A stretch of 54,506 bases of DNA from an uncultured virus (IMG/VR IMGVR_UViG_3300042344_000419) (lineage: Duplodnaviria; Heunggongvirae; Uroviricota; Caudoviricetes), in IMG/VR virus record IMGVR_UViG_3300042344_000419, one strand, 5' to 3'. Both the position numbers and the translations under genes were made by a program. The notes below the pieces were generated by a model. It was not told the origin of the DNA, made no database searches, and saw nothing but the letters and a program-made list of their open reading frames with translations. Positions 9,469-54,389 of the stretch are shown here, piece after piece. Positions within the stretch are counted from its first letter, which is position 1; every line of letters begins with the position of its first letter.

Positions 9469-11004
9469 GTGGACGATACGCCCTTCGTAAACGATGGGGC
9501 AGACACGTCCTTGCGGAAGGCGGTCAGTCTCCTTAACAAGATTGAGGCTAAGACTGGTCGACTCAATGGTCTAGACAACGACCCTTGGGTTTTTATTCCA
9601 GACTTAATGATGAGTCGCCCCAATGTTGAAGGTGTAGTAAACTTTACTGGTTATTATAGATTCGATGGGGTCGATCGATGGGGGATTGCGAATTCGGGTT
9701 CTTGGGATTACACGTATATAAAAAGACAAGTTGTAGAAGATTACTACCTCTTCACGCTTATGTATCACTATGGTGAAACCGGGCAAGAGCTTGAGTTCGC
9801 AGCTTTTGAGTCTCCATCGCCAGATTTTCCTACCAGTATGGATCCTTCTGGGGGCACCGTAGTCTCTGGTTCTCTTTTATTTAACACCGAACAACGAGAG
9901 TCTTTTTCGGTAAGGGTAACTAACCCAGTAAATGTCATATTACCCCCAGTAGCTCAATCAACAGCTACGACGAAAGTGAGATCTGTCGATTCTGCTGGGG
10001 ATGACTTAATGGGTTCCAGATCTGATTCCGCAGCAACGACAGATACTGGAACATTTTCAGTCTTAGCTTTTATTAAACGTGGCCTACAAAATTGGACTAC
10101 CCTGCTTGCTAAAATTCCGACTCTTGTGTCGGGTAGGATTCCAGTTGATGGGTCAGGTGTAACACAACCAGTTAGTGGAACTATTGCGTTGGATGCTACA
10201 AGTTTGGCAGCCCTAGAGAACATCAGCGTCACTTTCCCAGCTACCCAGAATGTAAACGTCACCAATGCGGGGTTGAATGTTTCGGTAACGAATTTGCCAG
10301 CAGTTGTTGATAATATCTATAATGAGGCCGATAGTATCAGCTTCAATGTGGGTGAAATTAAAACATTGCTTAATACTACTCGTCCAGTCTCCCTAGAATC
10401 AGTCCCTTCCCACCCAGTTACAGGGCCATTAACGGATACCCAGCTTCGAGCCGCTTCTGTCCCAGTTTCGCAAGCAACAGCAGCAAATCTTAATGCTACA
10501 GTTGTCGGGTCTGGTTCATTTACCGCCGCTCAAGCGACAGCTTCCAATCTAAAGGCGCAAGCCCAACTTCTAGACTCCGCTGGTAGTCTTTTAACTTACG
10601 CGGCAACTGGCACGGCTGGGACTCCAGGAGTAGACGTTGTATCGATACAAGGAGTAAGTAGTGGCGTTGCGGTTGCTGTTTCTGGTCCAGTAACAGACAC
10701 ACAGCTTAGGGCATCCTCTATTCCTGTCAGCGACAGGGGTAGTGTTGGTCAAGCTACTGTTACCACTTTTACAAGCACCTCCTCGCTGGTTTTGATGGCT
10801 TCGAATAGCGCAAGAAAGCTGCTGACAGTCTTCAATGAAGGCGCCGGGATCTTATATCTCTTGTACGGGGCTGGCACCGCCACTACTGCTAACTACTCGG
10901 TTCGTATAGGTTCTGGAGATTACCTAGAAATTGAAAAGTATACTGGGGCTGTTACTGGCATATTTGGTACGACTGGGACAGCTCGTGTTACGGAAATTAG
11001 TTAG
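9469..11004 (+). CDS. Virion surface/fibre-like protein with internal repeats
   Basis: S/T/G/V-rich. Repeat V[TS]GP[LV]TDTQLRA.S[VI]PVS at 10417-10470 and 10678-10731. C-terminal domain homologous to that of 53391-54389. Confidence 0.6.
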   Translation: MDDTPFVNDGADTSLRKAVSLLNKIEAKTGRLNGLDNDPWVFIPDLMMSRPNVEGVVNFTGYYRFDGVDRWGIANSGSWDYTYIKRQVVEDYYLFTLMYHYGETGQELEFAAFESPSPDFPTSMDPSGGTVVSGSLLFNTEQRESFSVRVTNPVNVILPPVAQSTATTKVRSVDSAGDDLMGSRSDSAATTDTGTFSVLAFIKRGLQNWTTLLAKIPTLVSGRIPVDGSGVTQPVSGTIALDATSLAALENISVTFPATQNVNVTNAGLNVSVTNLPAVVDNIYNEADSISFNVGEIKTLLNTTRPVSLESVPSHPVTGPLTDTQLRAASVPVSQATAANLNATVVGSGSFTAAQATASNLKAQAQLLDSAGSLLTYAATGTAGTPGVDVVSIQGVSSGVAVAVSGPVTDTQLRASSIPVSDRGSVGQATVTTFTSTSSLVLMASNSARKLLTVFNEGAGILYLLYGAGTATTANYSVRIGSGDYLEIEKYTGAVTGIFGTTGTARVTEIS

Positions 11005-11121
11005 GGAGTAGGCGATGCCTCTTTATCAAAAAGTCCCTGCGGAACCAGTTGCCGTACAGATGGCAGCGTTGATACGGCCTTCTATTAGTGGAACATCTTT
11101 TACTGCGCCCTATACTACCAA
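10995..11121 (+). repeat. 127-bp exact direct repeat, copy 1
   Basis: AATTAGTTAGGGAGTAGGCGATGCC...TATACTACCAA, identical to 54380-54506. Confidence 0.97.
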
Positions 11122-11605
11122 TTTAACGGGAACTGGGTCAAGATTTCTTACGCAAGTTTCAACGTCGAATAGATTGCAGACTATAACATCGTCGGGGATA
11201 AGGCATAACCTTGGACTCGTAACGTCCGTCGCAAGTAATACAAGCCTAGGTTTCACAACTTTCAGGTCAATTTCGGACAATCCAATTCACGTCATACCGC
11301 TGGATACTGGTTCCCCAACAACTGGAACTACATTCATAACTCAAAAATCTAATACGGCGTTTACAGTAGCAAACGGAAGCTATTACATATTATCAAGTGT
11401 AGGTTTACTTGGGCCGTACTCAATGACGCTCGCTGATTCAAATTTTACACTTCAATTCTCTTACGATTCAGCTTACTTTACGTGGGCAACTGCAAGTTCT
11501 ACCATAAACGAGTTAACCGCAGGATTAAATCTTTTTCCCTCAACAAATTTGACGGCAGGAACAGTCTACTATGTTTCTCCTGATAATATCCTAAGAATTG
11601 CGTGA
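11015..11605 (+). CDS. S/T-rich beta-structured hypothetical (putative virion) protein
   Basis: 196-aa ORF with GGGAG RBS; follows both homologous fibre-like genes. Confidence 0.6.
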   Translation: MPLYQKVPAEPVAVQMAALIRPSISGTSFTAPYTTNLTGTGSRFLTQVSTSNRLQTITSSGIRHNLGLVTSVASNTSLGFTTFRSISDNPIHVIPLDTGSPTTGTTFITQKSNTAFTVANGSYYILSSVGLLGPYSMTLADSNFTLQFSYDSAYFTWATASSTINELTAGLNLFPSTNLTAGTVYYVSPDNILRIA

Positions 11606-11606
11606 T

Positions 11607-11729
11607 ATGCCCCTCCTCCTCCTCGCTCTCTTGTTCTGCTCCTGCTCGCCAAGGCCAACTGAAAGCGAATCACAACTCCCGAGGTATTCTGATATGTCAG
11701 CGGCTCACGACGCAATGAACGCAAAATGA
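11607..11729 (+). CDS. Small putative lipoprotein (40 aa)
   Basis: Manual translation MPLLLLALLFCSCSPRP...: hydrophobic N-terminus then Cys. ATGA overlap with the next ORF. Confidence 0.5.
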   Translation: MPLLLLALLFCSCSPRPTESESQLPRYSDMSAAHDAMNAK

Positions 11730-11899
11730 ACACCGACGATCAAGCAATCCAAGCCCTCCAATACCTCCTCGATGAAGGCTTTATCTCTCTTGGGTATATC
11801 GACGGAAAGCCTTCTGTATATCTAACGACCAGCGTATCGGAGGCTCAGAAGGCAATTAAATCCATGGCAAAAGATACAGCAGACTGGTGGAAAAAATGA
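11726..11899 (+). CDS. Hypothetical protein (57 aa)
   Basis: MNTDDQAIQALQYLLDEGF...WWKK; ATGA overlaps on both sides. Confidence 0.6.
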   Translation: MNTDDQAIQALQYLLDEGFISLGYIDGKPSVYLTTSVSEAQKAIKSMAKDTADWWKK

Positions 11900-12153
11900 A
11901 TTGGCTAGTTAAGGCTGTCATCTGGTTCTTCCTACCACACCACGACAGGAATATCTTTCTTGAGGCTTGCAAGCTGGCATCCATGCAAATCGAGCAGCAG
12001 GATGAAACAGAGTACTACGGTGGAACCAAGCATGCCATTGCCTATGAACGCATTCGGACGATCTTAGTGAAAAGCGGTTACGCCAAGTCAGACATAACTG
12101 GGGCAGTCATTCATATGGCTATTGCGCTCAGATATCTGCAAAGCATCCGATAG
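11896..12153 (+). CDS. Hypothetical protein
   Basis: ORF track entry; start moved to the ATGA overlap at 11896. Confidence 0.6.
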   Translation: MNWLVKAVIWFFLPHHDRNIFLEACKLASMQIEQQDETEYYGGTKHAIAYERIRTILVKSGYAKSDITGAVIHMAIALRYLQSIR

Positions 12154-12190
12154 TAGTTGACTCGCCCCCGACCAGTCTTACATTACCTAC

Positions 12191-12358
12191 ATGAACTGGA
12201 TTACCGAAAACTTCGCAAATATCATGGCTGTGGTCGGGGCTGTAATCGTGCTGGCTCGCATTATTGTTAAGCTGACACCAACCCCTGCGGATGATGGCGT
12301 TCTAGACAAGATCGTTGCCGTCCTTAAAACACTCGGCCTTCATATCAACGACAAGTGA
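12191..12358 (+). CDS. Holin-like membrane protein (55 aa)
   Basis: MNWITENFANIMAVVGAVIVLARIIVKLTPTPADD...: one TM helix plus TPTPxDD; first gene of the lysis cassette. Confidence 0.6.
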   Translation: MNWITENFANIMAVVGAVIVLARIIVKLTPTPADDGVLDKIVAVLKTLGLHINDK

Positions 12359-12516
12359 TTCGTCTTATTGGAGCCGTCATTGACCTCGTCTTGAGGCTAA
12401 TGCCGACACCAAGGGAGCAAGTAGATTCGGCATCCAAGAAAAAGAGGGATGAGAATCAGGATAGAATCAATCGTACTTTCACTGGCACTAGCGGTATCCC
12501 TTGGTGGGTGCGCTAG
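12355..12516 (+). CDS. Putative inner-membrane spanin component (53 aa)
   Basis: GTGA overlap. Hydrophobic N-terminus MIRLIGAVIDLVLRL then a charged helix; overlaps the downstream lipoprotein ORF. Confidence 0.45.
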   Translation: MIRLIGAVIDLVLRLMPTPREQVDSASKKKRDENQDRINRTFTGTSGIPWWVR

Positions 12517-12682
12517 TACAGGTGCGAGATATCTCCCTCCAGACACAATAACTTTCCTTACAACCGACTATCGGTTTAAGGCTGTGATGAATGGTGGAGA
12601 GGATGTGAAAGGATGGGCAAGAGATGCACTCTCAACAATCAATGAGCTTCAATACCAGCTCGAACTCGAGCGAAACAAATGA
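12449..12682 (+). CDS. Lipoprotein, putative outer-membrane spanin
   Basis: Signal peptide with lipobox LGGC; lies in the lysis cassette. Confidence 0.6.
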   Translation: MRIRIESIVLSLALAVSLGGCASTGARYLPPDTITFLTTDYRFKAVMNGGEDVKGWARDALSTINELQYQLELERNK

Positions 12683-13203: not shown

Positions 13204-13254
13204 TAACTGTTTAGCAGTTGACAGTAGCCAGTTGAGCTGTAGCACTTTCCACAA

Positions 13255-13599: not shown

Positions 13600-13624
13600 A
13601 CTTCGGGAAAGAAAGGACTCCGTT

Positions 13625-14617: not shown

Positions 14618-15670
14618 ATGGCTATGATGACTCAAGGTAACCCAGCTTCGTTGGGCGATCAGTTTCAGGCTTTGTTCTCCAAAAAACTTCTGGACGGCGT
14701 TGCTGAAACGCTCGTTCTGAACAATTACGGAACGAAGTATGACCTGCCCACCAACACTGGGAACAACAGCATCACCATGTTCCAGTGGAATACCACAGCC
14801 GATGGCACTAATGTGAGCAATCTGACCGAAGGAACCCCGATTTCATCTTATCGTGAAGTTGGACTCCGTAAGATCAATGTTCCCCTTACGCAAGTCGGTG
14901 AAGCACTCAAGGTCACAGATATCCTTAACTACAGCCAGCTGTTCTCAGCCCTGCAGGAAGGTATCCGTGCTTTGACGCTCGATGCGGCTCTCCACTTGGA
15001 CACCGTTGTTCGTAATGCCCTTCAGGGTGTGACCGCAGCTGCTGGTATCGCAAATACTATCGCAGCAGCCCGCACTCAGGACATCTACGGCAATACCGTC
15101 AGCAAGATCTATGCTGGTGCAGCGACTGATTTCGCTACACTCGCAACCGCTGGTGCAAGCTCTACCCCTGTTTACCTGACCCCTTCCGACCTTTTGGATG
15201 CAGCTACGCTCATCCGCTTGGATAAGAATGTCAGCTTAAACGAAGAGTTTAACGCTATCGTTGATCCGACTGTCGCTGGTGATCTGCTCAAGGATTCTAC
15301 CGTTGTTAACATCGCACAATACAATACCAAAACTGGTGTCTCTGACATTGTCAAAGGCCAGCTCGGTCAAATCTATGGTGTGAATGTGCAACAGCACACG
15401 AATGCTTGGAAAGAATCCACTGAAGGAACTTATTCTTCATCTGGACACACGGTCTCGACATATGTTCTTACGAATGGTGCCTTTGGTACGGTCAATTATG
15501 GTGGCCAGTCCCCTTACGCTCCTTCCGTTGTTATCGTGGATAAACCCGATAAATCTGATATTCTCAACCAGAATATCTATGCTGGATGGAAAGCGCATTG
15601 GGCTGTTCAAATCTTGAACGCCAAGAAGGCTCGTGTTCTAAAGAGCAGAACTCGCACGATCAGCTCGTAA
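14618..15670 (+). CDS. Major capsid protein (N4 gp56-like family)
   Basis: 350 aa. LP..G.SI.MF, LTEG, GQLGQIYGV and DILNQNIYAGWK motifs; followed by a terminator. Confidence 0.88.
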   Translation: MAMMTQGNPASLGDQFQALFSKKLLDGVAETLVLNNYGTKYDLPTNTGNNSITMFQWNTTADGTNVSNLTEGTPISSYREVGLRKINVPLTQVGEALKVTDILNYSQLFSALQEGIRALTLDAALHLDTVVRNALQGVTAAAGIANTIAAARTQDIYGNTVSKIYAGAATDFATLATAGASSTPVYLTPSDLLDAATLIRLDKNVSLNEEFNAIVDPTVAGDLLKDSTVVNIAQYNTKTGVSDIVKGQLGQIYGVNVQQHTNAWKESTEGTYSSSGHTVSTYVLTNGAFGTVNYGGQSPYAPSVVIVDKPDKSDILNQNIYAGWKAHWAVQILNAKKARVLKSRTRTISS

Positions 15671-16324: not shown

Positions 16325-16726
16325 GTGAAAGAGGGCAAGAAGTTCGGCGAGCTGGCCGAACAGATGTTCTGCTTGGAGGTTCTTAAGAGGGGTGGGGTTC
16401 CCTGTAAGCCTATTGGAGACTCCCAGCCATACGATTGGCTGGTTGTTTCTGGTGGTAAGATCCACAAGGTTCAGGTCAAAAGCAGCTGGATGACAGTGTT
16501 AAACAGGGTCGGATCAAGGTCTACAAGCAGGTGCAGGGTATGTGTAAGCCATAAGACATCCAAGAGGGGCATATATAAGAAGCATGACATCGATATCATG
16601 GCTATATGGCTTGAGCCGTTTGGGTCTTGGATGATTATGCCCATAGCGAAACTGGGGCAAAAGAAGACCATACAGGTACGGAGGGCTGACTGCGAAAGCC
16701 CCAGCTGGTCTCTTTTAGGTTTGTAA
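16325..16726 (+). CDS. PD-(D/E)XK endonuclease (group I intron-associated/homing type)
   Basis: GELAE...YDWLV...KVQVKS motif order. Confidence 0.75.
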   Translation: MKEGKKFGELAEQMFCLEVLKRGGVPCKPIGDSQPYDWLVVSGGKIHKVQVKSSWMTVLNRVGSRSTSRCRVCVSHKTSKRGIYKKHDIDIMAIWLEPFGSWMIMPIAKLGQKKTIQVRRADCESPSWSLLGL

Positions 16727-23638: not shown

Positions 23639-26600
23639 ATGGCGATCACACCTTGGGACGACATTAAAGCCCAAGTAGGGTACGACGAATTACCCACCGA
23701 GGGTAAAGTAGATACGATCAACAAGTACTCCCAGTACGTTCAGGAGTATTACACGCAGGTTGAGCCTAGAGATGAAAAGGAAGTTGGTCAGGCTTCCGAC
23801 GAGTTTGTAAAGATTGCATCGCAGGATGCGCTGGGTGACCTCGGTGCGGTTGAGCGTGGATCTGCATTCCTCGGGAATATCTACAAGGGCGCATCTGGAA
23901 CTTTCACATCAGCCTTTAAGGCAGCTGCCCTAGCCCAGCAAGCCATTGGCGAGTCTCTTGGAAACTACGATGACAACACTCCAGTCACTGAGCGTGATAT
24001 CTATAAGATCGCACAGAATATCGACGAGAGTGTTAAGCAGACAACTGGCATCGAAGATCCCCGTCTACGCAATGATTTTATTAATACCTTACTGCCCCAA
24101 GGTCTTGGCAGTGCGCTTGGGTTCTTTGGTGTAGCTGCAGCAGCAGCAGCAGCTGCGCCTGAAGCAGCCGTTGGTGCTGTCGGACTTGGTACAGCAGCTG
24201 TGCTTGGAGCTGCAACAAACGCTGGGTCTACCTACGAGGAGGCAAGGCAGGCTGGGGCAAACGAGTTTACTTCGAGGGCATCAGCCCTAGCTGGCGGTGC
24301 TATCGGACTTACGGAGGCAATACCCCTTGGTGGTCTTGCTGGAAGATTAACGGCTGGAATTGCCAAGAGATCCATCCTTCGTGGTGTGGTCGAGGGAGCT
24401 ACCGAAGAGTTCTTGCAGGAGACTGGTTCTCAGATGGCCAACAACTTCGTTGCCTCTAAGTTTGCTGGGTACGATCCGAACAGGGGAATCATGGATGGGG
24501 CACTGCAGTCTGGTGCGGTAGGACTCGTAACTGGAGGACTGATCGGTGGCGGTGTGAATGCAATCACCCGTGATAACGAGGCTTTCTATGCTGAGAAACT
24601 ATCTGACGAGCTTAAGAGTAAAGCAGACCTAGCTGCATCACTAACTCCAGAACGACTGACACAGATTACTGAGGCAGCAAGAAACGCTAACACAACCACA
24701 CAGCAGAGGATTGATATTGAGACTGGGGAAACAGAGACAACCTCAACCCCCAAGACTGTGTTCGGGGATCGGCTTGCTGGAGAAGTCCCAGACATTGGCC
24801 AGAACCCTGCGATCAATAGCGTACCCCTTGGTCGTAGCGTTAGTCAGGATGGGGATGGCAACAATACAGAGACATTTACTTTCCATACCCCTCAAGGTCT
24901 TTTGTGGGAGGCAGAGTTCAGGACGGGTCAGCCAGTCAGGGTTCGTGACGTAACAGATGACAGTCCACTTCTAAACCCAATCACTAGCCCAGCAGATCCG
25001 AGGACTGCGACACGATCCCAGTTCACGGGTCGCATCATCTCTCCAACCAGCAGTATTGCAAAAGAGTTTGGCTTGGAGACAGAGCAAGAGATGGATCGCA
25101 GGCTGATCGCAGAAGCCCAGCGTGAGATGCAGCTTGGCAGGGTTACAGACCAAACACTTCTCCCAGACAACCAGATCATCCCAGAATCCGTGTCACGAGA
25201 TGATCGTGGCGTGGCTCGTCAGGTTGTCCTGAGCAATGAGATCGAACGGCTTTACAAGATCCGTGAGGGTGTACTCGCAAGGCAGATCCTTGTCGGCGAA
25301 AACCCTAACGCTGGCACAACCGAGTACGATCCTAACACGGCTAGAGAAGTTATCAGGTACGACTCAGAGGGTAACAAGATCGAGAATAAGCAGGAGACCT
25401 CGCAGAGGGTAGCCCGACTTAATCGCATGATCGGGATGCGGGAGACTGAGCTTCGTGGGCTAACGGCAAGACCAGAGGGATACATCCTAGCTTCCGAGCG
25501 TAACACACCGCCAAGCGCATCTCAGAAGCTCTCGCTTGTCCAAGGCTTCCAGAACCTGTGGAACAGCATCTCATCTCCAGCCCTACGCAATGCCATCACT
25601 TTTGAGGTGGGTGACATCACTCCTTTAATTGAATCGGGTCAGGTTCCAAAGGGTGCTGTTGCCTACTACAAGCGGGCTTCGGACGGCAGGAAGGCCATGA
25701 TCTTCTTGTCGGACAAGCTGGCCACGATGCCTATGGCTCGCAGGGAAATGATCCACGAGCTTGGCCATGCCTTCTGGGACACACTCCCAGCTGGTGTGCA
25801 GGCTGAGATCAGGGGTCTATGGAGGGCAGAGACAGAGTCTAGGACAGGTGCTTTGTTCGATGAGTTTGGTGGACTGAAGGCCGAGGTGAGTCCTCGTGTT
25901 ATGGAGTCAGTGCAGGAGTTCTTCTCTGAGCGTTTGGCTTGGACGAACGACCAGTGGGCTAAGGGACTCAGCGAGCAGAACAGTGTCATGGACAAAGCTG
26001 GTCGTGCTTTCAGAAACCTGCTCGACAGGTTCCTCCGATACACGGGTCACGGGGAAAGGCTGAACCTAGAGTTCAGATCATTCTTAGACCAAGGTGACAG
26101 GTTTAAGGGATTACGGACAAGGGTAGAGCAGGCTGTTCGTGCTGGCCGTGCTGGCATTAACGAGGAGCCACAGACTTCGATCCGTGGGCTTACTGGCAAT
26201 GAAAACATTCAGCCGAAGAAGGAGCGTGTAGGAACCACTGGCCAATACGTTGGAATGCCAGAGGGTATTAATAGCCCAGAGAAACTTCAGGAGCTACAGG
26301 ACAAGCTGCAGTCGCTTACATTCGAGGGCGAGGCTGGTAGATTCTGGTACGAGAGAAGCTCCGAAGAGATTCTTAAGATGGTGGGTGGTAATGTCAAAGA
26401 CGCAGAAACTCTTGTTGCATTCATTGCTGCATACTCACCACAAAACAGGGTCTATCCCAACTGGGGTCAGGCAGTCCGTGCTTACGCAGAATACAAGCGT
26501 GGCCAAAAGATTACCCAAGGAAAGACAGGAAGAGATATTGAGCGTGGTCAGAGAATAGCCGATGGGGAGCGTTGGAGTGGAATCAAGACGAACAACTTCT

Positions 26601-29600
26601 ACCACAACCTAATGATTCGGATTGACCCATCTCAGACAGTTAAAGGCGCAACCGTGGATATGTGGATCATGCGTGTGTTTGGTTATAAGTCAGACGCACC
26701 ATCTGCCACACAGTACGCAGCTGCAGAAAACACGATTAAGGAGATAGCTAGAAGGATTGGTTGGGAGCCACAGCAGGTTCAGGCAGCTATGTGGGTTGCT
26801 GGCAAGGCAAAGTGGGAGGACATCATCTGGCCAGAGATTAAGGCCGAGGCAAAGCGAAAGGGTGATTTAATTCAGGTTGAGAATGAGGCTGGGAAGAAGA
26901 AGTGGGAGTTCAGGTCTAAAGAGATTGCTGAAGAGTATAGAAACAAGGCAATGAGCCGTGTGTTCGACAGTCTTAATGTAGACATCAAAGAAGCTGCAAT
27001 GGACTTCAGTGATATGGCAAAGAGGAATCTCGCCACAGTCTCAATGGAGACAAGGTTTGGCACTACGACAAATGAACGCTGGCAGGATAATCTCAGCTTT
27101 GAGCAGCTACTCCAATATCATCAGCAGAAAGAACAAATCCTAACAGACACATCTGGCATCAACATCGTACTCCGTGAGTTCGGTGTACCGATGGATAACA
27201 TGTATAGTGCTGTCGGGCTTTGGAAGTCGCAGACAAACCCACTCACCCAGATCGAGGTTCCAAGCTATCGAGATACTGGATCAAAGAGGTTTGCAGCTGA
27301 TAAGAATATCAAGGCGAATCTGGATGACGCTATATCTGCACTTGGTTTGCTGCTTAAGCAGGATGGCATGGCATACCATCAGCCGTATTTTGACGCACAG
27401 GTAAAGGACTCAAATGGAGTTGAATTTAGGCTTGGAAGAAAGACTACTGCCGAAGAAACAGCCAAACTTAACGATGCCTTTAATAGTGGATATGCGATTG
27501 TAAATGTGAGGGATGGCTTCCGTGTCTTAAAGTTTGACGATTCGATGGATAATGTTGCATTCCATAAGGATGCAAAAGCAAGGGTTGAGTCAATCTTTGA
27601 CGATAGTCAATCGATTCAAATGGACAGATTTGCGTTTGATGGCAACCTAATAGAGAACGATTGGAGCAAGAATACTAATGGCGAAAATTATAGATCTAGG
27701 ATTAAAGAAAGCGGACGATCCGATATTCTCGGAAGGCTTGAGGATAACCTCCGTCCGCAGATCGAAAGGCTCGATGCCTATTGGAGAGGGATTGCAGAAT
27801 CTGGTGGGAGAACAGAAACCGAGTCCGCTGGAAGGCAGGGAGCAGGAACTAAACAAAGCCCTCAAGTCGGAGGCATTCAAGAAGCAGGGTCGCCAGAAGT
27901 AAGAGCATCGACTAGGGGCGCACAGCCTCGCAACGAGGTAATCCAGCAGGCAGCTAACGACTTCTTTGAAGGCAGGATATCCAGAGAAGAACTAAACAGA
28001 ATCTCCGAAGAACAGAAGCCAGCCCGTCCAGTAACATCCATCCCAATCCTCACGGATGATGAGGCAAGGTCATCTCTCGACGCTGGCAAGCAGGGGATGT
28101 ACGGAGCTGCGAGAACTCTTGAGGAGGGAACTCCTGTCGGACTTCGGATTGATATCCCGTCTTATAACAGGACAGGCAACTATGTAGTTACCGTTCACAA
28201 CCAAGCAGAAGGCAAGAGCAGGGTTGGTAAGGTTATTGGATACGACAGGATCGCTGCAGTAAAAGATGCGAGATTCTTTAATGCGTCAGAGAAGGTAACT
28301 CTTTCAATAGCCCAAGGATACTCGAAGACCCCACTTGCAACCGTCGAGGGTAAGTACATTCCAATGGCAAATGCGCCAGCTGGGCTACTTGAAAACTATC
28401 AGCAGGTTGGATTTGACCCACAACGTCACAGCTATTTCTACAGCAAGCAGAACGGCAACCCCGTCATCTCTGCTGATGAGGCTATCCTTATTGGGAATAC
28501 TGTATTCGTTAAGGGTGCGGTTGAGGGCAACAGGGGTGACTTCTTGTTCTCTACACGGGGTGAGCAAGCCCCAGCCCTGATAAACGATATATCTCAAAGA
28601 TTTAACCTCAGCCAAGAGCTACAGAAAGAGGTAGTTGAGAGAATAAGGCTACAAGGAATAACCCGTCAGGTTATCGAGGATGATAACGACTGGCAAAGAA
28701 CAGCGATATACGAAGCCGTTAGAGATATTAGCGAAGATGGAATCCTGATATCTCAACTCCCTGAAAATAAGAAAGCATTGTTCTTAAGTGAAAAACAAAA
28801 AAACATTGATAACATAGTAAATATAGAACAGGGGTATGGTGAAGATGCTCAGGGGGATTTGCTGGACAATGAAGCCATAAGGTATGAGGGAGTATTAAAT
28901 AGGCTCGGTATTGGCGAGGAAAGGCAGGCGCAGATAGGTGAGGCAGGCAAGCTGCTGAATAAAATAGAAAAGTACTTTGATAAAAGAGAAGCTATTCAAC
29001 AAAATGCTGGAGACTATCTTGCATCAACTCGTGGTGAACAGGCAAAGAAGTTACTAGAACCCGTCATCTCCTTTGGCCGTCAACAGCTCCGCACTGGTGG
29101 TGCTTTACCATACGACATCTTCCGCATGACCGAGCAACGTGGATTCAACGTCAACGAGAAGATGCTTCGGGCGCAGAACGCAGTGTCAGATATCGAGGCA
29201 GCGGTGAAGCGTTCCTACGGCAAGTCACTCGACCAGCTCCCCGAGGTAGAGATCGCTAGAATTAACGAGGGTCTACAGAATCCTATGGCTAGGGCTAAAC
29301 TTCCAACCGATGTTGCCTCTGCCGTCGGTAACGCCCGCAACCTGATCGACAGCCTGACCCAAGACCTGCTCCGATCTGGTGCAATCTCCGAAGATCTCAA
29401 GCCCGTCCTCGAGGCTAACAAAGGTGTCTACCTAAACCGCAGCTACGAGAAGTGGGAGAACCCCAACTACAAGAACCCCTTCAACACCCTGCCGAAACAG
29501 GTGCAGAACAAGCTCGTTACCACTGTCACATCCTACCTCCACAACAAGTACGCAAATGCGTACGCCAAGGAACAAAGCCTTGCCCGTGGTGAGGTGGCAA

Positions 29601-32425: not shown

Positions 32426-32746
32426 TCAGGCTGGTTTATTGGATGTTGTGATCATCGAGGAAACTTCAAGTAGCCCAAGTTTCGTGCTGCAATGATCCCC
32501 GTTCTTTACCCCAAAGATAATCCCCTTCCCACCCAGCCCGTGATCGCCAATCCTAAAGGCACCGCCAAACCGCTTGGACTTATCCTTGATCAGCCACTCC
32601 TCATCCACAAAAAGAACTTCCGTACTGCTGATTTTAATCGGGGCTAAGTACCCTCCTATGATCTTCTGAATCTCCTCAAGATGCCCCTTAACCTCAATCT
32701 CTGAGATGGCTGGAGTGGCAAGCGGGTCGATCAGGATAGCTCTCAT
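32426..32746 (-). CDS. DUF3846-like phage protein
   Basis: LEEIQKIIGGYL...LFVDEE...GKGIIFG pattern; ATGA overlap with the integrase. Confidence 0.65.
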   Translation of the reverse strand: MRAILIDPLATPAISEIEVKGHLEEIQKIIGGYLAPIKISSTEVLFVDEEWLIKDKSKRFGGAFRIGDHGLGGKGIIFGVKNGDHCSTKLGLLEVSSMITTSNKPA

Positions 32747-35317: not shown

Positions 35318-36034
35318 ATGAGGACAGTTCAGCTATTTCTCGACGAGCCACACCAGAAGTACAGGAACAAATACGGGGATATCCTGCCGTCCGTTACTTC
35401 AATAATCGGAAAGCATATAGCCATTCCCCAGCTAGTGCCTTGGGCATTTGGGCTAGGCAAGAGAGGCAAGTGTCTCGAGAAGGATGGTGGTAAGAAGCGG
35501 AGGATCGGATCGATATTCCACTTCGGTGCCCACGGCTTCCTTGATGGATTTAAGTGTGACTTCAGTCTGTGTGCCAAGGACGAGGTCGAGTGTGCCGAGG
35601 AGATGATCGAGGGATTCAAGAAGTGGTGGTGGAAGAGCGGTCTGGATCGCATCCACTGCGAGCTTCAGCTTGCCAGTGATAAGCACGGCTTCGGTGGAAC
35701 TGTAGACCTTATCGCTCGGGATAAGCAGGGGAGGCTGGTGCTGGTTGACTTCAAGACCAGCTCATCCCTCAAGCCCCAGTACGAACTGCAGATGGCTGGT
35801 TACAAGATGCTCTACGAGGACTGCCACCCGTTCGACGAGGACATTGAGGCAGTAAAGTTACTTCGTATCGGGTACGAGAACGACATTGAGGAAAGAAACT
35901 TTGAGGACTTAACCCCGCAGATGGAGGCGTGGAAAGCGATCTTGCGCTTCCATTCTGCATACAAACAAATCGAAGATCGCACGAAAGGACAGAAAACATG
36001 GCCACGGAAACGCAAGTCAAAGGCATCAAGCTAA
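35318..36034 (+). CDS. PD-(D/E)XK exonuclease (Cas4/RecB-like)
   Basis: PSVTSI, GSIFH, GGTVDLI, LVDFKTS and QMAGY motifs. Confidence 0.85.
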   Translation: MRTVQLFLDEPHQKYRNKYGDILPSVTSIIGKHIAIPQLVPWAFGLGKRGKCLEKDGGKKRRIGSIFHFGAHGFLDGFKCDFSLCAKDEVECAEEMIEGFKKWWWKSGLDRIHCELQLASDKHGFGGTVDLIARDKQGRLVLVDFKTSSSLKPQYELQMAGYKMLYEDCHPFDEDIEAVKLLRIGYENDIEERNFEDLTPQMEAWKAILRFHSAYKQIEDRTKGQKTWPRKRKSKASS

Positions 36035-36426: not shown

Positions 36427-36789
36427 ATGCCAATCAATTCTTGCGCCAAGGGTAAGCGTGGAGAAAGAGCATGGAGGGATTTCCTTCGTGCCGTTGGTAT
36501 CTCGGCTCGGAGAGGTAGGCAGTACTCGGGTTCCCCAGACTCTCCCGATGTTGTGTCGGATGACGGCATGCACTGGGAGGTTAAGTGGGTTGAGAACCTG
36601 AATGTGTGGAAGGCCATCGAGCAGTCGGTCAGGGACTGCGGAGCTGGAAAGGTTCCAGCGGTAGCCTTTAAGAAAAACGGAACAGACTGGCTGGTTGCCA
36701 TGAGAGCTGAGGATTTCCTTAAGATCAAGGGCAACTGCCAAGCAGATGAAACTAAAACGGAGGTTAAAGGAATATGGATAAAGCATTAA
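36427..36789 (+). CDS. Hjc-type Holliday junction resolvase
   Basis: KGKRGER...PDVV...WEVK (PD-(D/E)XK). Confidence 0.82.
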   Translation: MPINSCAKGKRGERAWRDFLRAVGISARRGRQYSGSPDSPDVVSDDGMHWEVKWVENLNVWKAIEQSVRDCGAGKVPAVAFKKNGTDWLVAMRAEDFLKIKGNCQADETKTEVKGIWIKH

Positions 36790-39049: not shown

Positions 39050-39261
39050 TTACCTTCCTTCCTAACGAACGCTGGGTTCAGACACCCAAGGGCGAGGGGC
39101 TATGGCTTGCCCTGATTGACTACGGAAAGACCGACAACCCTGTCTACCTGATCGAGCTGAACACTGGAGAACATATCTGCGTGGATATGTGCGAGGTCAG
39201 GGGAACTGAGAACGCCATGTACGGACTGGACAGACCAAGCCAGCCAGAGAGGAAGATGTGA
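39046..39261 (+). CDS. Conserved small phage protein
   Basis: VQTPKGEG..LALIDYG pattern; GTGA-coupled. Confidence 0.65.
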   Translation: MITFLPNERWVQTPKGEGLWLALIDYGKTDNPVYLIELNTGEHICVDMCEVRGTENAMYGLDRPSQPERKM

Positions 39262-43378: not shown

Positions 43379-44629
43379 TCATCCCTCCCGAGGGATGTTG
43401 ACCAGCTCCCCATACGGGGGCTGGATGCCTTCAGTGTTGGAGTGGATCGCCCAGACAGTCGGGCAAACCTCAGCTCCCCAGTTGCTGACTTGGCCGTCAG
43501 TGATGAAGACATGTGCCTTCACCTCGTTGCCCTGACTGATCAGGTCATCGAGTTTCACCGAGGCATCGTCGAAGTCTGTGCCACCACCGCCCCGCAACTT
43601 GGGGAGGGGATCGCCGTCGAGGTATTCCTCGAAGCCGTAGTGTTCGGTATCGCACGAGCCGATGAAGACTTTCGCCTTGATCGACTGGGCACACTCCTGC
43701 ACCTCGGCGATGGCCTGCTCGTAAAGCTCGGGGCTGATGCTCCCCGAGGTGTCCACCGAGATCGCCAGTACGCCTGCACCCTCAGAGCTGAGGCTCGGGA
43801 GGATTGCGGTGCGGTGACGGCGAGATGGCCTACGCCAGCTCCAGTCATCGTTGGTCTTCTCGGTCAGCAGTCGGCGAAGTGTGTCCCGCCAGTTGACCGC
43901 TGGTTTGCGTGAGCTACCCAGCAGTCGGTCAAGCCCAGCGGGCAGGTTGCCAGCGAGTCGGGCTGTAGCCTCTGCACCAGCTACTGACTGAAGAATCTTT
44001 TCAGATACCTCGGCCTTCTTCGCTTCGCTCAGTGGCTTGCCGTCCTCGGTTGGGTCTTCAACCTTGCCCCACTCGGATGACTTGTCTGGCTCGCTGTCAG
44101 ACGATTGCTCGTCGGACTGCTCATCGCCACCAGCTCCCGAGCTGGATGACTTGTCATCCTGTTTGCTGGATGACTGGTCATCCTGCTTCTGCTGTTTCTG
44201 CTTCTGCTTCTCAGCCCTGTCTTTTGCCAGTATCTCGTAGACCTGATACTCGGACAGGTTGCGGTACTTTTCATCGAGGAGACCGCCCTCGGGCAGGTAG
44301 TACCCGCCGTCTTTTAGAATCAGGTTGATGACATAGTCACACGCCTGATTCCAGAGCTGAGGGTCACGGCTTCCACGATTGACCGAGTGGAGCAGTGCGA
44401 TGTGAAGCACCTCGTGAGCGATCAGCCCAACAACCTGCCTCACATCCAGCTTCTCGAGGAAGCTGGGTGCGTAGCGGATTCTCGTGCCGTCCGTGCATGC
44501 CGTCTCGACTGCCTCGTCCAGCTCACTGGGCAGACCGCATGCGATTGCCCCGAAGAACGGGGCATCGCACACGATCCGCACCCGAGCCTTCTCGAGTATC
44601 GACTCTGCAGATAGTTTTTTCTTGTTCAT
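43379..44629 (-). CDS. Metallopeptidase-VWA protein (DUF2201-like)
   Basis: TACTDG, AHEVLH (HExxH), D/S/Q-rich linker, MIDAS DTSGS, GGGTDF and ITDG. Confidence 0.9.
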   Translation of the reverse strand: MNKKKLSAESILEKARVRIVCDAPFFGAIACGLPSELDEAVETACTDGTRIRYAPSFLEKLDVRQVVGLIAHEVLHIALLHSVNRGSRDPQLWNQACDYVINLILKDGGYYLPEGGLLDEKYRNLSEYQVYEILAKDRAEKQKQKQQKQDDQSSSKQDDKSSSSGAGGDEQSDEQSSDSEPDKSSEWGKVEDPTEDGKPLSEAKKAEVSEKILQSVAGAEATARLAGNLPAGLDRLLGSSRKPAVNWRDTLRRLLTEKTNDDWSWRRPSRRHRTAILPSLSSEGAGVLAISVDTSGSISPELYEQAIAEVQECAQSIKAKVFIGSCDTEHYGFEEYLDGDPLPKLRGGGGTDFDDASVKLDDLISQGNEVKAHVFITDGQVSNWGAEVCPTVWAIHSNTEGIQPPYGELVNIPREG

Positions 44630-44647
44630 CGCTGAACCTCCTTTTTG

Positions 44648-45682
44648 TTAGGCCACCAACAGGTGACCACGATTCGCTACCCACTCTCCGTAGTGCGGGC
44701 AGATCTCAACTTTTGGTGCGACCTTGGTCGCTGTCTTTGAGGCGAAAGCCTCGAACGCCTCGCCGAGTCGAGGGATGTAGCTGAAAAACGCTTTCGAGTT
44801 TTTCGCATCAACCTTCAGCCTCGCCGTCAACGCACCGATCAAAGCCCACCGAACCTCGGGCTTGGTCGGCACCGATGCCTTGGCGGGATTCGCCAGTATC
44901 TCGTCGGGCAGAGTTGCCAGCCCCTCGTAGACCGAGAGGAAGCCGTGCAGGTCAACGCCCGCCGTCCCGAGCGAGGCGGTGAGCCAAGCGGGAGAGGTGA
45001 GCTTTGCCTTCACGAGTCTGTCAACTGCCTCCCACGAGCGAGGACACGCCACTTTCTTGGCGAACTCGGCGGTGGGTTCTTCAGCGAACCGATCAGGTCG
45101 GAACTGCAGGAAGCTGAGAATCTCGGGGGAGATCCCAGCACCGCCTGCCCATCCGAGCCAGTGGTTGAGGTCGGGCAGAACTTCGATGGTCGCATCGAAT
45201 CGCCCGATCAACGGGGAGATGAGCCAGCCCACGCCAGCCCGATCAGTGCGGGCATTCGTCGCTCCGACGAACTGCACACAATCGGGGATGCGTTTGCCTT
45301 CGACCTCCCGTGCCCAGATGATGTGTTGCAGACCTTTCTGCACCGCCTCACTGGCCTGACCCAAGTCATCGAGGAAGCACAGGGTGGGCTTCTTTGCTTT
45401 CAGCAATCTCCTGAGCAGTCCGATTGGATCGAACACCGCCGACCCGTCGATCACCACAGGCAGACCTTTGTAGTCTGTGGGGTCAGAGCAGGCAGGGGTA
45501 TCCACGATGACCTCGGGGTCACCGCCGATCTCGGAAGCGACCCGCTTCCAAGCATCCTGCACGATGGCAGTTTTGCCGACTCCCGCCCGCCCGATGAGCA
45601 GGCAGGAGATTTTGTTTTTGAATGCCGTTGCGAGATCGCTCGCAAGGTTACCGATTTTTATTTGGTTGATGTTGTTGTTCAT
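44648..45682 (-). CDS. MoxR-type AAA+ ATPase
   Basis: GRAGVGKT, FLDDL, ATN and CPRSWE. Confidence 0.88.
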   Translation of the reverse strand: MNNNINQIKIGNLASDLATAFKNKISCLLIGRAGVGKTAIVQDAWKRVASEIGGDPEVIVDTPACSDPTDYKGLPVVIDGSAVFDPIGLLRRLLKAKKPTLCFLDDLGQASEAVQKGLQHIIWAREVEGKRIPDCVQFVGATNARTDRAGVGWLISPLIGRFDATIEVLPDLNHWLGWAGGAGISPEILSFLQFRPDRFAEEPTAEFAKKVACPRSWEAVDRLVKAKLTSPAWLTASLGTAGVDLHGFLSVYEGLATLPDEILANPAKASVPTKPEVRWALIGALTARLKVDAKNSKAFFSYIPRLGEAFEAFASKTATKVAPKVEICPHYGEWVANRGHLLVA

Positions 45683-49668: not shown

Positions 49669-49671
49669 CCC

Positions 49672-49903
49672 CATGCCTTGGAATTACACCGAACACAAAG
49701 CCCGCCTTCACTCCGATGAAGCCTACAAATTACAGTTCTACGCCAAGTGCCGAGAATGGCTTAAACGCAGGGTTCGCAACGATCCAGACTACGCACTCAT
49801 CCACCGAGTCAAACGGCGCATACAAGCCCGCAAGCGACGAAAGAAGGCCAAGCTGGAGGCGAAGCGGTTAGCCAAGGAGAAGTCCAATGTCCCAAATGAA
49901 TGA
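49672..49903 (+). CDS. Basic hypothetical protein
   Basis: MPWNYTEHK... K/R-rich ORF; start coordinate approximate. Confidence 0.5.
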
Positions 49904-51311
49904 ACTGCAGAAGCTGAAGTTCCTGTCCACACTGGCTGGGTTCTCCAGCCACTACCTTGGGATGGACAGCCTTTACCCTTGGCAGATCCAGTGCATGGAT
50001 GCTCTTGATGCTGGTGGCAGAGTGGCTGTCAGGGCACCCAACGGATCGGGCAAGTCCAGCTTCTTAGTGGTACCAGCCATCATATGGCACTGTGCTGTAT
50101 TCCCTAACAGCTATGTGATCGTGACTTCTAACGTAGGCAGACAGATTAAGTCAGGCTTGTTTGCCACTGTACACAAGTACGCCTCCAAGCTGAAGGGCTG
50201 GACGGTTAACTCCAACGAGCTGATCAGCCCGATTAACGGGAGGGCGGTGGCCTTTACCACCGACGAACCCCAGCGGATGGAGGGGTGGCATCCAGAGGGC
50301 AGCACCACGGGTGGCAAGGGCAACCTGATGCTGATCTATGACGAGGCCAAGTCCATACCTGCAGAGATCTGGCATGCAGGTGAACGCACCCAACCCAACC
50401 GTTGGTTAGCTATTAGCAGCACAGGTTCAGCAAACAGCTTCTTTGCCAAGTGCTTTAGGGAACATGCTAAGTTCTGGAAGACCTTCACTATTCCTATCGG
50501 CCAGTGCCCACATATTACGGACGAGTCGATTAGAAGACTTAAGGAGCTGTATGGGGATGACCACCCGCTGGTCAGGAGCATGATCCATAACGAGTTTGTG
50601 GATGAGGCTGATAACGAGACCGTGATCTCGGAAACCAAGATCCATGACTGCAGGGCTACACCCCCAACCCACTTTCCTATGGATAGGGTGGCTTTTATCG
50701 ACTGGGGTGGGGCAGGGGTTGACGAGACTGCCGTGGCCATCATGGACGGGAACAAGCTGTTGCCTCTAATCATCATTAAGGATCGGGACGAGATGCGTAC
50801 CGTCGGACGGGTGATAAGGGAGCTGCGGGCGTTTCAGGTTAACCCCAAGCTGGTCTGGGCTGACAACGGGGGTATCGGGTCGCCCATGATTAGGCGCATG
50901 GACGAGCAGGGGTACAGCGTCAACCGTGTGAACTTTGGTACGGCTGGTTTGGCTGGGTACGCCAACAAGGCTTCCGAGATGTTGTTTACGGCAGGCAAGC
51001 TGATTGAGGACAGGGGAGTGATCCTGCCCAAGGACGACATCATGGACGGACAGCTGTGTACCCGCAGGTTCTTCTGCACATCCAATGGCAGTATCAAGCT
51101 GGAGTCCAAGGCTGAATATAAGCAAAGGACAGGTGGAAGCAGTCCAGATCGTGCGGATGCAGCTGCTGGAGCCATCTGGGCTTATGTCAAGACCAGACCG
51201 AGCTTGACCTCAAATGATGCTGGTGGTAGTCATTTGCAGACAGATGTATTCGGCAATACCATCCAAACTAACTTTGAAGATGCCAGAAGTGGCTTCGACG
51301 CTGGGGACTAA
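49887..51311 (+). CDS. terL: Terminase large subunit (phage B)
   Basis: YPWQ, APNGSGKS (Walker A), IYDEAK (Walker B), FIDWG and SPDRADA. Confidence 0.92.
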   Translation: MSQMNELQKLKFLSTLAGFSSHYLGMDSLYPWQIQCMDALDAGGRVAVRAPNGSGKSSFLVVPAIIWHCAVFPNSYVIVTSNVGRQIKSGLFATVHKYASKLKGWTVNSNELISPINGRAVAFTTDEPQRMEGWHPEGSTTGGKGNLMLIYDEAKSIPAEIWHAGERTQPNRWLAISSTGSANSFFAKCFREHAKFWKTFTIPIGQCPHITDESIRRLKELYGDDHPLVRSMIHNEFVDEADNETVISETKIHDCRATPPTHFPMDRVAFIDWGGAGVDETAVAIMDGNKLLPLIIIKDRDEMRTVGRVIRELRAFQVNPKLVWADNGGIGSPMIRRMDEQGYSVNRVNFGTAGLAGYANKASEMLFTAGKLIEDRGVILPKDDIMDGQLCTRRFFCTSNGSIKLESKAEYKQRTGGSSPDRADAAAGAIWAYVKTRPSLTSNDAGGSHLQTDVFGNTIQTNFEDARSGFDAGD

Positions 51312-53150
51312 ATGACCACGCAAGAGCTGTACGATGCTTTTTGCGATGACCTTAAAAAGCGAACCACTTGGGAGGATCGGCAGAAGGTTTGGTACACCAT
51401 GTGCAATGGTGGACTTCGTCGTAAGCGTAAACCTTGGCCGAATGCAGCCGACCTTCACTATCCTTTAGCGAACTCGATCATCAATAAGTTCGTACCGTTT
51501 TACATAAACCAGATTTACTCAGCTGAGAATCTGGCCAGCTTTACCCCACGCAAACCTCAGATGCAGTCTCTGCGCTACGCAGCGGAGAGCTGGTTTAACT
51601 ACATGCTGCGTGAGCGTTCCAATTTTGAAACCGAGATGATGGTCTATGTGTCGGCCATGCTTCGTTGCGGGATCTCGTTTATGAAGACATCTTGGGATGA
51701 AGCCAACAGGTCGGTCAAGTTTGATGCAGTTAACCCGATGTATCTTGTGTTCCCGTACTACACCAAGGACATGGAGAGCTGTGATCGGATCTGCCACATC
51801 ATGGAAATTTCTGAAGGCCAGTATCGTCGCAATGAGGCGTACAAGCAGGACGATGATTTTATTAAGCGGATCAAAGGCGAGGGGAACTCGGCTGGTGCTG
51901 GGGTTCGCTCGTATGATCAGCACAAGCTAGGCAAGCAGGGTCTGACCGAGGGCAGCATGCGGGATAACATCATTATCTGGGAGTGCTACTATCGGGATGA
52001 CAAGGGGAAGATCATCGTGGAGACCTTCAGCCCGCAGGCTCCTGACGAACCTATTCGCCCTAAGTTTGAGCTTCCCTATGCCCACGGGCAGATGCCGTTT
52101 GTGCCGTGCATGCTGGAGTTTACTCCAGACAAAGGTTTTTATTCCAGCCGTGGAGTTTGTGAAACGGTTGCAGCTTTTGAAGCTGCGTTGACCAAGACCA
52201 TGAACGCCAAGGCTGATGCGATGAGCCTCTACAACTCACCGATGTTTTCCTCTGATCAAGACATACCCAATGTGAACAATATCAAATTCGGCACAGGGGT
52301 TCTCTTGCCCACGGGAGTTAAGCCAGTACTAATGCCCCAGCCCCCAATCAGCTTTGATCAGGAGATGGTGCAGATGCGTCAGGTCTCCGAGTACTTGGTG
52401 TCGATGCCCGACTTCGGCCTGACGCAGGGAAGACTCGGAAGCTCCAAGCCCCGCACGGCTACCGAGGTGCAGAATATCGGACAGCTGATGGGGGTGAACA
52501 CAGATCTCCGCATTAAACTTTTCAGGCTGGCGTTGAGCGAAATCTACAAGCAGGCATATGCAATCCTAGTTGAGTACGCACACGACCAGCTTCTCTTTGA
52601 ATACCAGAACCAGTTCTCGGCTGTCCCTGCCGAGGCAATCATCTTTGATTACCAGATCAAACCTTCGGGCAGTGCTGACGGTGTGAACCGAGTCATGCAG
52701 TACCAGAAGGCTTTGGTGCGGTTCCAGACCCTCCGTAACGATCCGTACATTAACCAGCCAGAACTCCGCAAGGATCTGCTGGAGGTGGACGATCCCCACC
52801 TTGTCAACCGCATGTTGATCGATCCGCAGCTCAAGAAGCAGATGCAGGCCGAAGAAGCTGGAAGCGAGAATCTGTTGCTCGACCAAGGCTTCGGTGCTGT
52901 GGCTGTTGAGCCTGCCGACGATCACGAGGTGCATGTTCAGATCCACATGGATCGACTGCAGTTGGCTGGTCAGCGTGGACAGCAGCTCGCTCAGGATAGC
53001 GGTGCTGCCTACACCCAGCATTTACAGCAACACATCCAGTTCCTTTCACAGACTAACCCGAACCTCGCCAAGCAGATCGGCGCACAGATTATGAAGGCTA
53101 TGCAGACTGAGACCAAGAATGCTCAGTTCCAGCAGATGTTACCGCAGTGA
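51312..53150 (+). CDS. Portal protein (phage B)
   Basis: 612 aa after TerL; KPWPNAADL, RTATEV and DDHEVH motifs. Confidence 0.85.
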   Translation: MTTQELYDAFCDDLKKRTTWEDRQKVWYTMCNGGLRRKRKPWPNAADLHYPLANSIINKFVPFYINQIYSAENLASFTPRKPQMQSLRYAAESWFNYMLRERSNFETEMMVYVSAMLRCGISFMKTSWDEANRSVKFDAVNPMYLVFPYYTKDMESCDRICHIMEISEGQYRRNEAYKQDDDFIKRIKGEGNSAGAGVRSYDQHKLGKQGLTEGSMRDNIIIWECYYRDDKGKIIVETFSPQAPDEPIRPKFELPYAHGQMPFVPCMLEFTPDKGFYSSRGVCETVAAFEAALTKTMNAKADAMSLYNSPMFSSDQDIPNVNNIKFGTGVLLPTGVKPVLMPQPPISFDQEMVQMRQVSEYLVSMPDFGLTQGRLGSSKPRTATEVQNIGQLMGVNTDLRIKLFRLALSEIYKQAYAILVEYAHDQLLFEYQNQFSAVPAEAIIFDYQIKPSGSADGVNRVMQYQKALVRFQTLRNDPYINQPELRKDLLEVDDPHLVNRMLIDPQLKKQMQAEEAGSENLLLDQGFGAVAVEPADDHEVHVQIHMDRLQLAGQRGQQLAQDSGAAYTQHLQQHIQFLSQTNPNLAKQIGAQIMKAMQTETKNAQFQQMLPQ

Positions 53151-53386
53151 ATATCGTAGACGTTGACATGTCGGATATCAGGGAACGCCTCGCAAGAATG
53201 GAAGAGCGTCAGGTCGGCCTGTGTTCTATGCTTGAGCGGAGCCTTTCTAACTACGGGGATCTGGTTAATCGGGTGACGGCACTTGAGAAACTTAAAGGAC
53301 ATTTCTACTTAGCAGCTGCCATCGTCGGCACGGCTGTCTCCATATCTTGGGAGTTGATCAAGACCAAGTTCTTCAGCAAAGGATAA
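53147..53386 (+). CDS. Small coiled-coil plus TM protein (holin/XhlA-like)
   Basis: ERLARMEE coil then C-terminal hydrophobic FYLAAAIVGTAVSISW. Confidence 0.6.
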   Translation: MNIVDVDMSDIRERLARMEERQVGLCSMLERSLSNYGDLVNRVTALEKLKGHFYLAAAIVGTAVSISWELIKTKFFSKG

Positions 53387-53390
53387 TACA

Positions 53391-54389
53391 ATGCCCAGCA
53401 ATCAAGAGTTTTTCGATGCAATCAAAAATATATCGGTAGATGCCGATACGCTTAATCTCAATACCGATCAGGTCGAGAGTAAGCTCGACACGGCTAATGG
53501 TTTGCTAACTACGCTTTCTGCGGATACTGCAATTATTAAGACTGACATGTCTAACGGGGTGTCGATAAGTGGAGCAATCGGAGCATTTAACAACTCTTTA
53601 GTTAACGCAGGAACTATATTTAGTTATGGCGGTGCTGGTAATTACGGATTGTTTGATGCGGGAACTGATGCTGACTATGTCGAGTTTAGGGTAAATGGTG
53701 GAGGCGGAGGTTTTACTCACAACATTGCTCTTTCTGTTTCCAACTCTCCTTTTTCAACTGGTGCTGGTACTAGCAATGGCTCAGTAACGGTATTTAATGA
53801 CAAATATCCATCTTCTCAGGGCGACCCAACGGCCTATCGATTTATAAATTCACCTCTTACCAGTGGCTCGGCAGGCAACTATGTCTTTAGTTTGTGGTCT
53901 GGAAGTACCAAGTATAGATATGTAAGATTAGATGTAACGGGTGGTGGTGGAGGTGGCTGGTCTGGAGTATTCAATTCATACAGAAACTTAGGTCTTAATG
54001 CTACAATTGGTGGAGATAACAGGATACTTAATAGAGTGCCAATCGCAGGGGTTGTCGATATAAACAGTTGTACAAGTTCACTCCCATGTACAGTCAGCGG
54101 AACCGTAAATACATATCCGCTACAAGGCTCATCTGTATCTAACACAAACTTTTCAAGCATCACATCCGCTGAACTCGCTCCAGCGTCTGTCAATAGGAAA
54201 TCCCTAACCGTGTACAATGAGGGGACTGGAACACTCTTTATAAATGTTGGTGCAAGTTGTAGCACCACATCGTATCAGGTGCGGTTACTGGCGGGAGATT
54301 ATTGGGAAGCCCCAGCGGGTCAACAATCCCTTCAGCATAGCGGAATCTTTAGTAGCTCAGGTACGGCAAGGATAACTGCAATTAGTTAG
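53391..54389 (+). CDS. Virion surface/fibre-like protein
   Basis: N-terminal coil, G/S/N-rich beta region, and a C-terminal RKSLTVYNEG...GTARIT domain homologous to 9469-11004. Confidence 0.6.
   Translation: MPSNQEFFDAIKNISVDADTLNLNTDQVESKLDTANGLLTTLSADTAIIKTDMSNGVSISGAIGAFNNSLVNAGTIFSYGGAGNYGLFDAGTDADYVEFRVNGGGGGFTHNIALSVSNSPFSTGAGTSNGSVTVFNDKYPSSQGDPTAYRFINSPLTSGSAGNYVFSLWSGSTKYRYVRLDVTGGGGGGWSGVFNSYRNLGLNATIGGDNRILNRVPIAGVVDINSCTSSLPCTVSGTVNTYPLQGSSVSNTNFSSITSAELAPASVNRKSLTVYNEGTGTLFINVGASCSTTSYQVRLLAGDYWEAPAGQQSLQHSGIFSSSGTARITAIS

Follow-up and report, generated by a model that had tools for sequence, protein, structure and literature searches.

Elimination of short palindromic words and loss of two dipeptides in a family of uncultured tailed phages

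Introduction

Elimination of restriction sites is a known way for phages to escape the restriction systems of their hosts. In the accessible part of a survey of phage genomes, near-complete elimination of Type II sites is reported for about a tenth of them (Rusinov et al., 2018; PMC6286503). Loss of GGNCC is reported for all Rosenblumvirus phages (PMC6346686). In what is available of another study, site avoidance is handled as an effect on synonymous codons (PMC8410138). Here we describe a stretch of 54,506 nucleotides from an uncultured virus (IMG/VR record IMGVR_UViG_3300042344_000419; hereafter, the window). Some caution is needed in reading the record, because the window joins two phages at a recently exchanged tail gene: a fragment of phage A (1–10994) and the complete circular genome of phage B (43,385 bp; 10995–54379), the purged one. 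The strategy seen in B is a known one against restriction, but the case is real, very strong and well replicated, and it is notable for the breadth of the ban, its cost in conserved proteins and its turnover within the phage family. Its purge most probably reflects selection by many Type II restriction enzymes of its hosts.

Words eliminated from phage B

Words were counted separately in A (1–10994) and in B (from 10995 on), and the expectations for B were taken from a maximal-order Markov model. B contains no CCGG (118 expected), CGCG (66), CCWGG (118) or GGWCC (60), and the Poisson log10 P for the first three is -51, -29 and -51, respectively. A first-pass annotation had reported that CCGG, CGCG and CCTGG are missing from B and, from sampling, that CCAGG and GGWCC appear to be missing too. 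All five counts are indeed zero, against 12, 24, 7, 7 and 4 in A, and none of the zeros is near the Markov expectation. In addition, synonymous codons were shuffled 100 times in 43 B genes chosen from the list of open reading frames (ORFs). The shuffled genes carried 116 CCGG (minimum 84), 86 CGCG (minimum 68) and 80 CCWGG (minimum 57), and the lowest count of GGWCC was 36. Since these minima are far above zero, codon usage does not explain the zeros, and the proposal that B avoids many restriction-type sites is borne out under both nulls.

The ban extends beyond the words first named. CCNGG, GRCGYC, GRGCYC and RGCGCY are absent, GGNCC occurs once (11411) and GCSGC twice (11700 and 14984). Moreover, 28 of the 64 six-base palindromes are missing, where 0.48 would be expected; GAATTC, AATATT, ATGCAT and GGATCC are among the absent six-mers. 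If six-mers that contain ACGT or one of the five core words are set aside, only three others with an expectation of at least 6 are absent, and these non-palindromic words all fall in degenerate palindromes (GRCGYC, GWGCWC and GRGCYC). The banned words stand at a ratio under 0.1 of compositional expectation, and it is short palindromes, degenerate ones included, that are affected, not asymmetric words. GATC, GCGC and GGCC had been called common in B. This is right for GATC, which is not avoided (300 vs 319 expected), but GCGC (45 vs 84) and GGCC (96 vs 164) are roughly halved, and ACGT is also low (34 vs 113). Partial depletion of these three words follows from the ban on many of their six-base contexts. 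Split patterns of Type I style showed no comparable zeros in B. GCTNAGC and CCTNAGG, both palindromes of seven bases, are each present a single time, and TCN7GA falls about 30% short of expectation (152 vs 215).

As the first-pass annotation had stated, no methyltransferase was recognised in B: no such family was found by Pfam among 49 ORFs, although unannotated ORFs may hold unrecognised enzymes. PF00145 is absent from all five complete genomes of the B family, and PF01555 from two of them (G004 and G005).

Loss of Pro-Gly and Gly-Pro

Avoidance of sites is usually discussed as a synonymous matter, whereas in B two dipeptides have gone from the proteome, but for one copy, and a residue pair of the portal protein that is 91% conserved has been rewritten. 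Every Pro-Gly codon pair includes CCNGG and every Gly-Pro pair includes GGNCC, so that these bans cannot be respected by synonymous changes. Among the 12,291 residues of B, Pro-Gly occurs never and Gly-Pro once (40.4 expected for each), and no other dipeptide is as strongly depleted as these two. Pro-Gly is zero in all six complete genomes of the family that were counted (B, G005, G004, G069, G070 and G071), with 30–44 expected in each. A literature search at listing level turned up no study in which avoidance of sites had cost a phage its Pro-Gly or Gly-Pro.

The portal protein of B (51312–53150, plus strand) has Thr-Gly at residues 328–329, where 116 of 128 homologues (91%) have Pro-Gly; the set comprises the full-length proteins among 150 listed, those shorter than 550 amino acids being excluded. 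Thr-Gly is the escape in B's genus, and the sister genus has Pro-Ala at the same site, in 14 of the 14 loci that cover it. In the terminase large subunit (49887–51311, plus strand), a Thr-Gly at 179 corresponds to Pro-Gly in 75 of 120 homologues. This change is less telling, because 35 of the 120 also have Thr-Gly. At residue 128 of the same protein, Pro-Gln stands for the Pro-Gly of 39 of the 120. The Walker A motif of an AAA ATPase (44648–45682, minus strand) carries Ala-Gly at residue 33, and Pro-Gly is found there in a sister clade that tolerates CCWGG. In these replacements selection has changed the residues themselves, and it has done so where the portal protein, the terminase and the Walker A motif are otherwise conserved.

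Word sets of the phage family

Among close strains of B, 53 overlapping loci (638 kb, redundant) hold 13 matches to CCGG, CGCG, CCNGG or GGNCC. Eleven of these lie in variable tail DNA, one at the first base of a contig, and one is a CGCG in the core. More distant members follow other rules. G004 keeps 206 CCGG and 180 CGCG, yet it has no CCNGG, GGNCC or ACGT. One clade (L025, L124 and L125) keeps CCWGG, GGNCC and about half of the expected Pro-Gly and has no CCGG. Another (L017, L126 and L127) additionally bans ACGT and CAGCTG and keeps GCSGC and GGATCC. In the sister genus, whose terminase is 43% identical, CCWGG is zero in all 26 loci (L133–L158). G070 of this genus has nearly B's own set, with CCGG, CGCG, CCNGG and GGWCC all at zero and GCSGC at 2; in G069 and G071, of the genus of G070, CCGG and CGCG are not below half of expectation. 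Thus, the banned set differs between sister clades and recurs across genera. More distant relatives (L159 and L160) retain the Pro-Gly positions. A quick terminase tree, in which B's genus sits on a long branch, is compatible with either retention or reversion of Pro-Gly in the CCWGG-tolerant clade.

The sister clades also allow the manner of loss to be followed, and this bears on mutational erosion, in which methylated C would deaminate to T and the words would decay without selection. Of the single changes, C>T at the inner C is the most frequent both for CCGG (25 of 59 relative to G004) and for CCWGG (30 of 99 relative to clade B3), and there is more TGCG than expected (351 vs 256). However, more than half of the single changes at sites kept by sister clades are of other kinds, and the deamination products CTGG (566 vs 548) and CTAGG (41 vs 37) stand at expectation. 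The escape changes of B are a mix of transitions and transversions, and B as a whole lacks the combination of C>T-product excess and C>T-dominated loss that marks methylation-driven depletion. Erosion would moreover settle at some equilibrium level and not at a complete absence over 43 kb, nor would it swap a 91%-conserved Pro-Gly for two different escapes. The substitution spectrum largely refutes it, and we regard it as very unlikely.

Another alternative is that a site-specific nuclease of B digests host DNA and that its targets were purged from B itself. B does have PD-(D/E)XK genes (16325–16726, 35318–36034 and 36427–36789), but two of the three match exonuclease and RusA families, and the PDDEXK_5 family is also present in unpurged genomes of the A lineage (G002 and G010). 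A single nuclease cannot account for about twenty unrelated words or for the turnover among clades, which makes this explanation hardly credible.

Phage A and the junction

The A fragment, with family matches to a resolvase, an integrase, a terminase, a portal-like protein and a tail gene, is 93.5% identical in nucleotides to G002 over 8.8 kb. It belongs to a lineage of 62–75 kb phages unrelated to B. The first-pass annotation held that A has not purged the words of B, and its 11 positions for CCGG in A are all correct (a twelfth, at 9779, was overlooked). Elimination in the manner of B is in fact absent, but largely the same words, such as CCGG, GGNCC, CATG and GCGC, are depleted 2–7-fold: CCGG 12 vs 28 expected, GGCC 19 vs 39, CATG 6 vs 22.5, and GGWCC plus GGSCC 5 vs 37. 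G002 is similar, with 66 CCGG (175 expected), 50 GGNCC (231) and 52 CATG (158), and RCCGGY and WCCGGW are almost gone from it.

Three of five A-lineage records carry PF00145 (G002, G003 and G006; not G010 and G073), and these carriers of a C5 methyltransferase are partly depleted. The enzyme of G002 (L064:1501–2955) has 484 amino acids, and an ORF of 172 amino acids is nested in it in another frame. For G010, complete at 75 kb, neither PF00145 nor a scan of 25 ORFs gave a C5 methyltransferase, and this genome shows no depletion of palindromes (CCGG 518 vs 513 expected). Self-methylation therefore does not suffice to explain why A is unpurged. G010 (L164–L167) also encodes a family A DNA polymerase and an ORF of 5,241 amino acids. 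We likewise do not claim that A keeps CCGG only within self-methylated CCSGG (10 of 12 sites in A and 52 of 66 in G002), since the pattern is explained equally well if RCCGGY and WCCGGW were lost and GCCGGA/TCCGGC was left over (11 sites).

As assembled, the window is chimeric: the assembler passed from A to B within a shared tail gene. The boundary had been placed as a point at 10995; instead, a cassette of 618 bp (10995–11612, plus strand; ORF 11015–11605) is identical in both phages, and this identity accounts for the crossover. Four public runs (X1–X4) were compared over 9600–12600 of the window for unitig structure and depth. In X1 and X2 the cassette is a single unitig of 618 bp, entered by two paths and left by two, whose depths roughly sum: in X1, 21.4 for the cassette, 10.7 and 14.2 for the entries and 13.9 and 9.3 for the exits; in X2, 98.8, 56.3 and 47, and 55 and 52.7. 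X1 and X2 are not independent, and the window may itself derive from them. At low depth, X3 has B's entry and the second exit and X4 the second exit. The circle of B is real, because 54380–54506 (127 bp, plus strand) exactly repeats 10995–11121, as expected where the assembly of a circle overlaps itself, and the joint is crossed at 100% by three independent contigs (L006, L022 and L024).

The cassette has a guanine-plus-cytosine (GC) content of 42% and one banned site, where 6.6 would be expected at A's rate. It holds B's only GGNCC (11411) and its only Gly-Pro. An A-lineage contig (L198) matches 10519–11030 at 93%, and a third phage (L197) carries the cassette at 85%. The variable tail gene of B (53391–54389, plus strand), the first part of the swapped region, has a C-terminal domain homologous to A's 9469–11004, and a domain of A's tail gene is matched at 73% in L200, a phage of the B family. 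The adjacent tail genes of both A and B finish with a common domain of 70 residues, which may serve as a recombination joint. A second element common to the two lineages, about 165 bp of B at 39052–39212 upstream of a 2OG-Fe(II) oxygenase region, matches G006 and G010 at 77–79%. Recent exchange of the cassette would imply overlapping hosts. As both phages carry it, their hosts are probably shared, and the difference in word content between A and B is no evidence of different ones.

Probable selection by restriction enzymes

Under selection by Type II enzymes, B would represent a family of 40–45 kb tailed phages that has no methyltransferase and evades restriction by carrying no target. A new copy of a target word would be cut on entering a host strain with the cognate enzyme, and selection would keep about twenty palindromic words at zero; the counts are observed, and the enzymes are presumed. 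Where CCNGG or GGNCC is unavoidable, in Pro-Gly or Gly-Pro, selection would swap the amino acids. The banned set would shift by clade since clades presumably infect host populations with different sets of enzymes. A would meet partly the same enzymes, but it is only partly depleted. The zeros, the restriction to palindromes, the survival of exceptions chiefly in DNA that was swapped recently and the clade-wise switching together fit this kind of selection.

Several points weigh against it. One strain (L009) has the CGCG in the core mentioned above. Neither the host genome nor an enzyme was found in the searches described below, and the cause is read from the words. B carries an integrase, and temperate phages rarely eliminate sites, according to the accessible survey text (PMC6286503). 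The unpurged G010 implies that lack of PF00145 methyltransferase does not force a purge. Finally, most banned four- and five-base words are also typical targets of 5-methylcytosine (5mC) methyltransferases.

The last point favours an alternative in which B avoids methylation and not cutting: 5mC marks set by one host would provoke Type IV cleavage in the next, or poor replication. The banned four- and five-base words are classic 5mC targets, but the AT-rich six-mers GAATTC, AATATT, ATGCAT and GGATCC, equally absent, are usually tied to adenine or N4 methylation. Coliphage T7 is nearly without GATC (6 vs 143 expected) and CCWGG (2 vs 87), the Dam and Dcm words of Escherichia coli, whereas B does not avoid GATC. 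In the available texts, T5-like phages are described as avoiding host methylation (PMC10644984), and an M.SinI-like 5mC enzyme for GGWCC is encoded in a freshwater Verrucomicrobia bin (PMC6329791). Type IV sites are under-represented weakly in the survey, as far as its accessible part goes (PMC6286503). We consider avoidance of methylation unlikely.

A plausible but tentative extension, to which we would not yet commit ourselves, is that the banned sets are convergent barcodes of distinct uncultured hosts, probably Verrucomicrobiota, toggled as clades change hosts. Restriction pressure would then overrule conservation of core proteins, with independent escapes in the portal protein (Thr-Gly and Pro-Ala), and Pro-Gly would have come back in the one clade freed of the CCWGG ban. 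The turnover and convergence displayed by this family of near-complete genomes fit, in that respect, the suggestion of the first-pass annotation that the missing words are a fingerprint of the host. If the extension is true, the family offers a natural series in which the price that proteins pay for evading restriction can be measured, and host enzyme sets are predictable from phage sequence alone. It also gives predictions on the restriction systems of the lake host.

Gene content and host

B is a double-stranded DNA virus of prokaryotes by its matches to terminase, portal protein, major head protein and tail fibres. Family matches place the major capsid protein at 14618–15670 (plus strand), and B further encodes DnaB, an M15-type endolysin and a virion protein of 2,701 amino acids (23639–31744). 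The virion protein has DUF7178 and L5 gp82-like domains; it is possibly injected and is a candidate for anti-defence functions. The AAA ATPase, which is MoxR-like, pairs with a DUF2201 metallopeptidase/vWA gene on the minus strand (43379–45682), in a GC-richer block. No tRNA or Rfam match was found. An intact tyrosine integrase (32743–33738, minus strand) suggests a potential for temperate life. In a scan of 16 metagenome loci with this integrase, neither an integrated copy nor a prophage with host flanks was found, and the 11 good matches all lie on contigs of 45 kb or less.

No host genome was found for B in GTDB, in Burkholderiaceae genomes or in the flanks of the 16 integrase loci, a protein atlas search returned virus clusters only, and none of the clusters looked up carried an organism name. 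The single GTDB match (L132, VERI01000053.1) is a B-family contig of 3,967 bp in a Burkholderiaceae bin. Burkholderiaceae were set aside as host, the match being a probable misbin: the contig is phage-only, and B-family matches occur in 1 of 59 genomes of this family. The runs with DNA of A or B are labelled lake or freshwater metagenome. Among cultured phages, those of Akkermansia give the best matches to the terminase of B and the integrase of A (24–31%). Of 120 homologues of B's terminase, the only one with a named organism comes from a Chthoniobacteraceae bin, all four organism-named ones among 120 of A's integrase are Verrucomicrobiota, and the Verrucomicrobia phage P8625 is likewise nearly without GGNCC. 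These hints agree and point weakly to Verrucomicrobiota.

Comparison with known systems

Type II avoidance in double-stranded DNA phages, as set out in the accessible text of the survey (PMC6286503), is matched by B in the complete loss of short palindromes, in the lack of a recognised modification enzyme of its own and in the sparing of non-palindromic words. B differs in being unusually broad (two four-mers, three families of five-mers and 28 six-mer palindromes) and in bearing an integrase, and here the avoidance is traced to proteins and across a family. In the available part of its description, the Staphylococcus Rosenblumvirus phiAGO1.3 also has no GGNCC, and this elimination is given as the basis of its wide strain range; unlike B, it has known hosts and enzymes (Sau96I and Sau1) and fewer Type II words involved (PMC6346686).

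Seven reference phages served as a benchmark for dipeptides and palindromes. Anabaena phage A-4L and P8625 resemble B in that GGNCC is nearly or fully gone and Gly-Pro is zero (34 and 24 expected), so that dipeptide loss through site avoidance is not unique to B (two of seven references). A-4L also lacks many six-mer palindromes (33 of 64). Unlike B, both retain Pro-Gly (32 and 21), and none of the seven has both dipeptides at zero, the AT-rich sk1 being closest (1 and 1 vs 9.4). T7, with its podophage-sized genome, resembles B in lacking 19 of 64 six-mer palindromes and nearly all CCWGG. Unlike B, it has more than a tenth of the expected CCGG, CGCG and GGNCC, it avoids GATC and it encodes Ocr.

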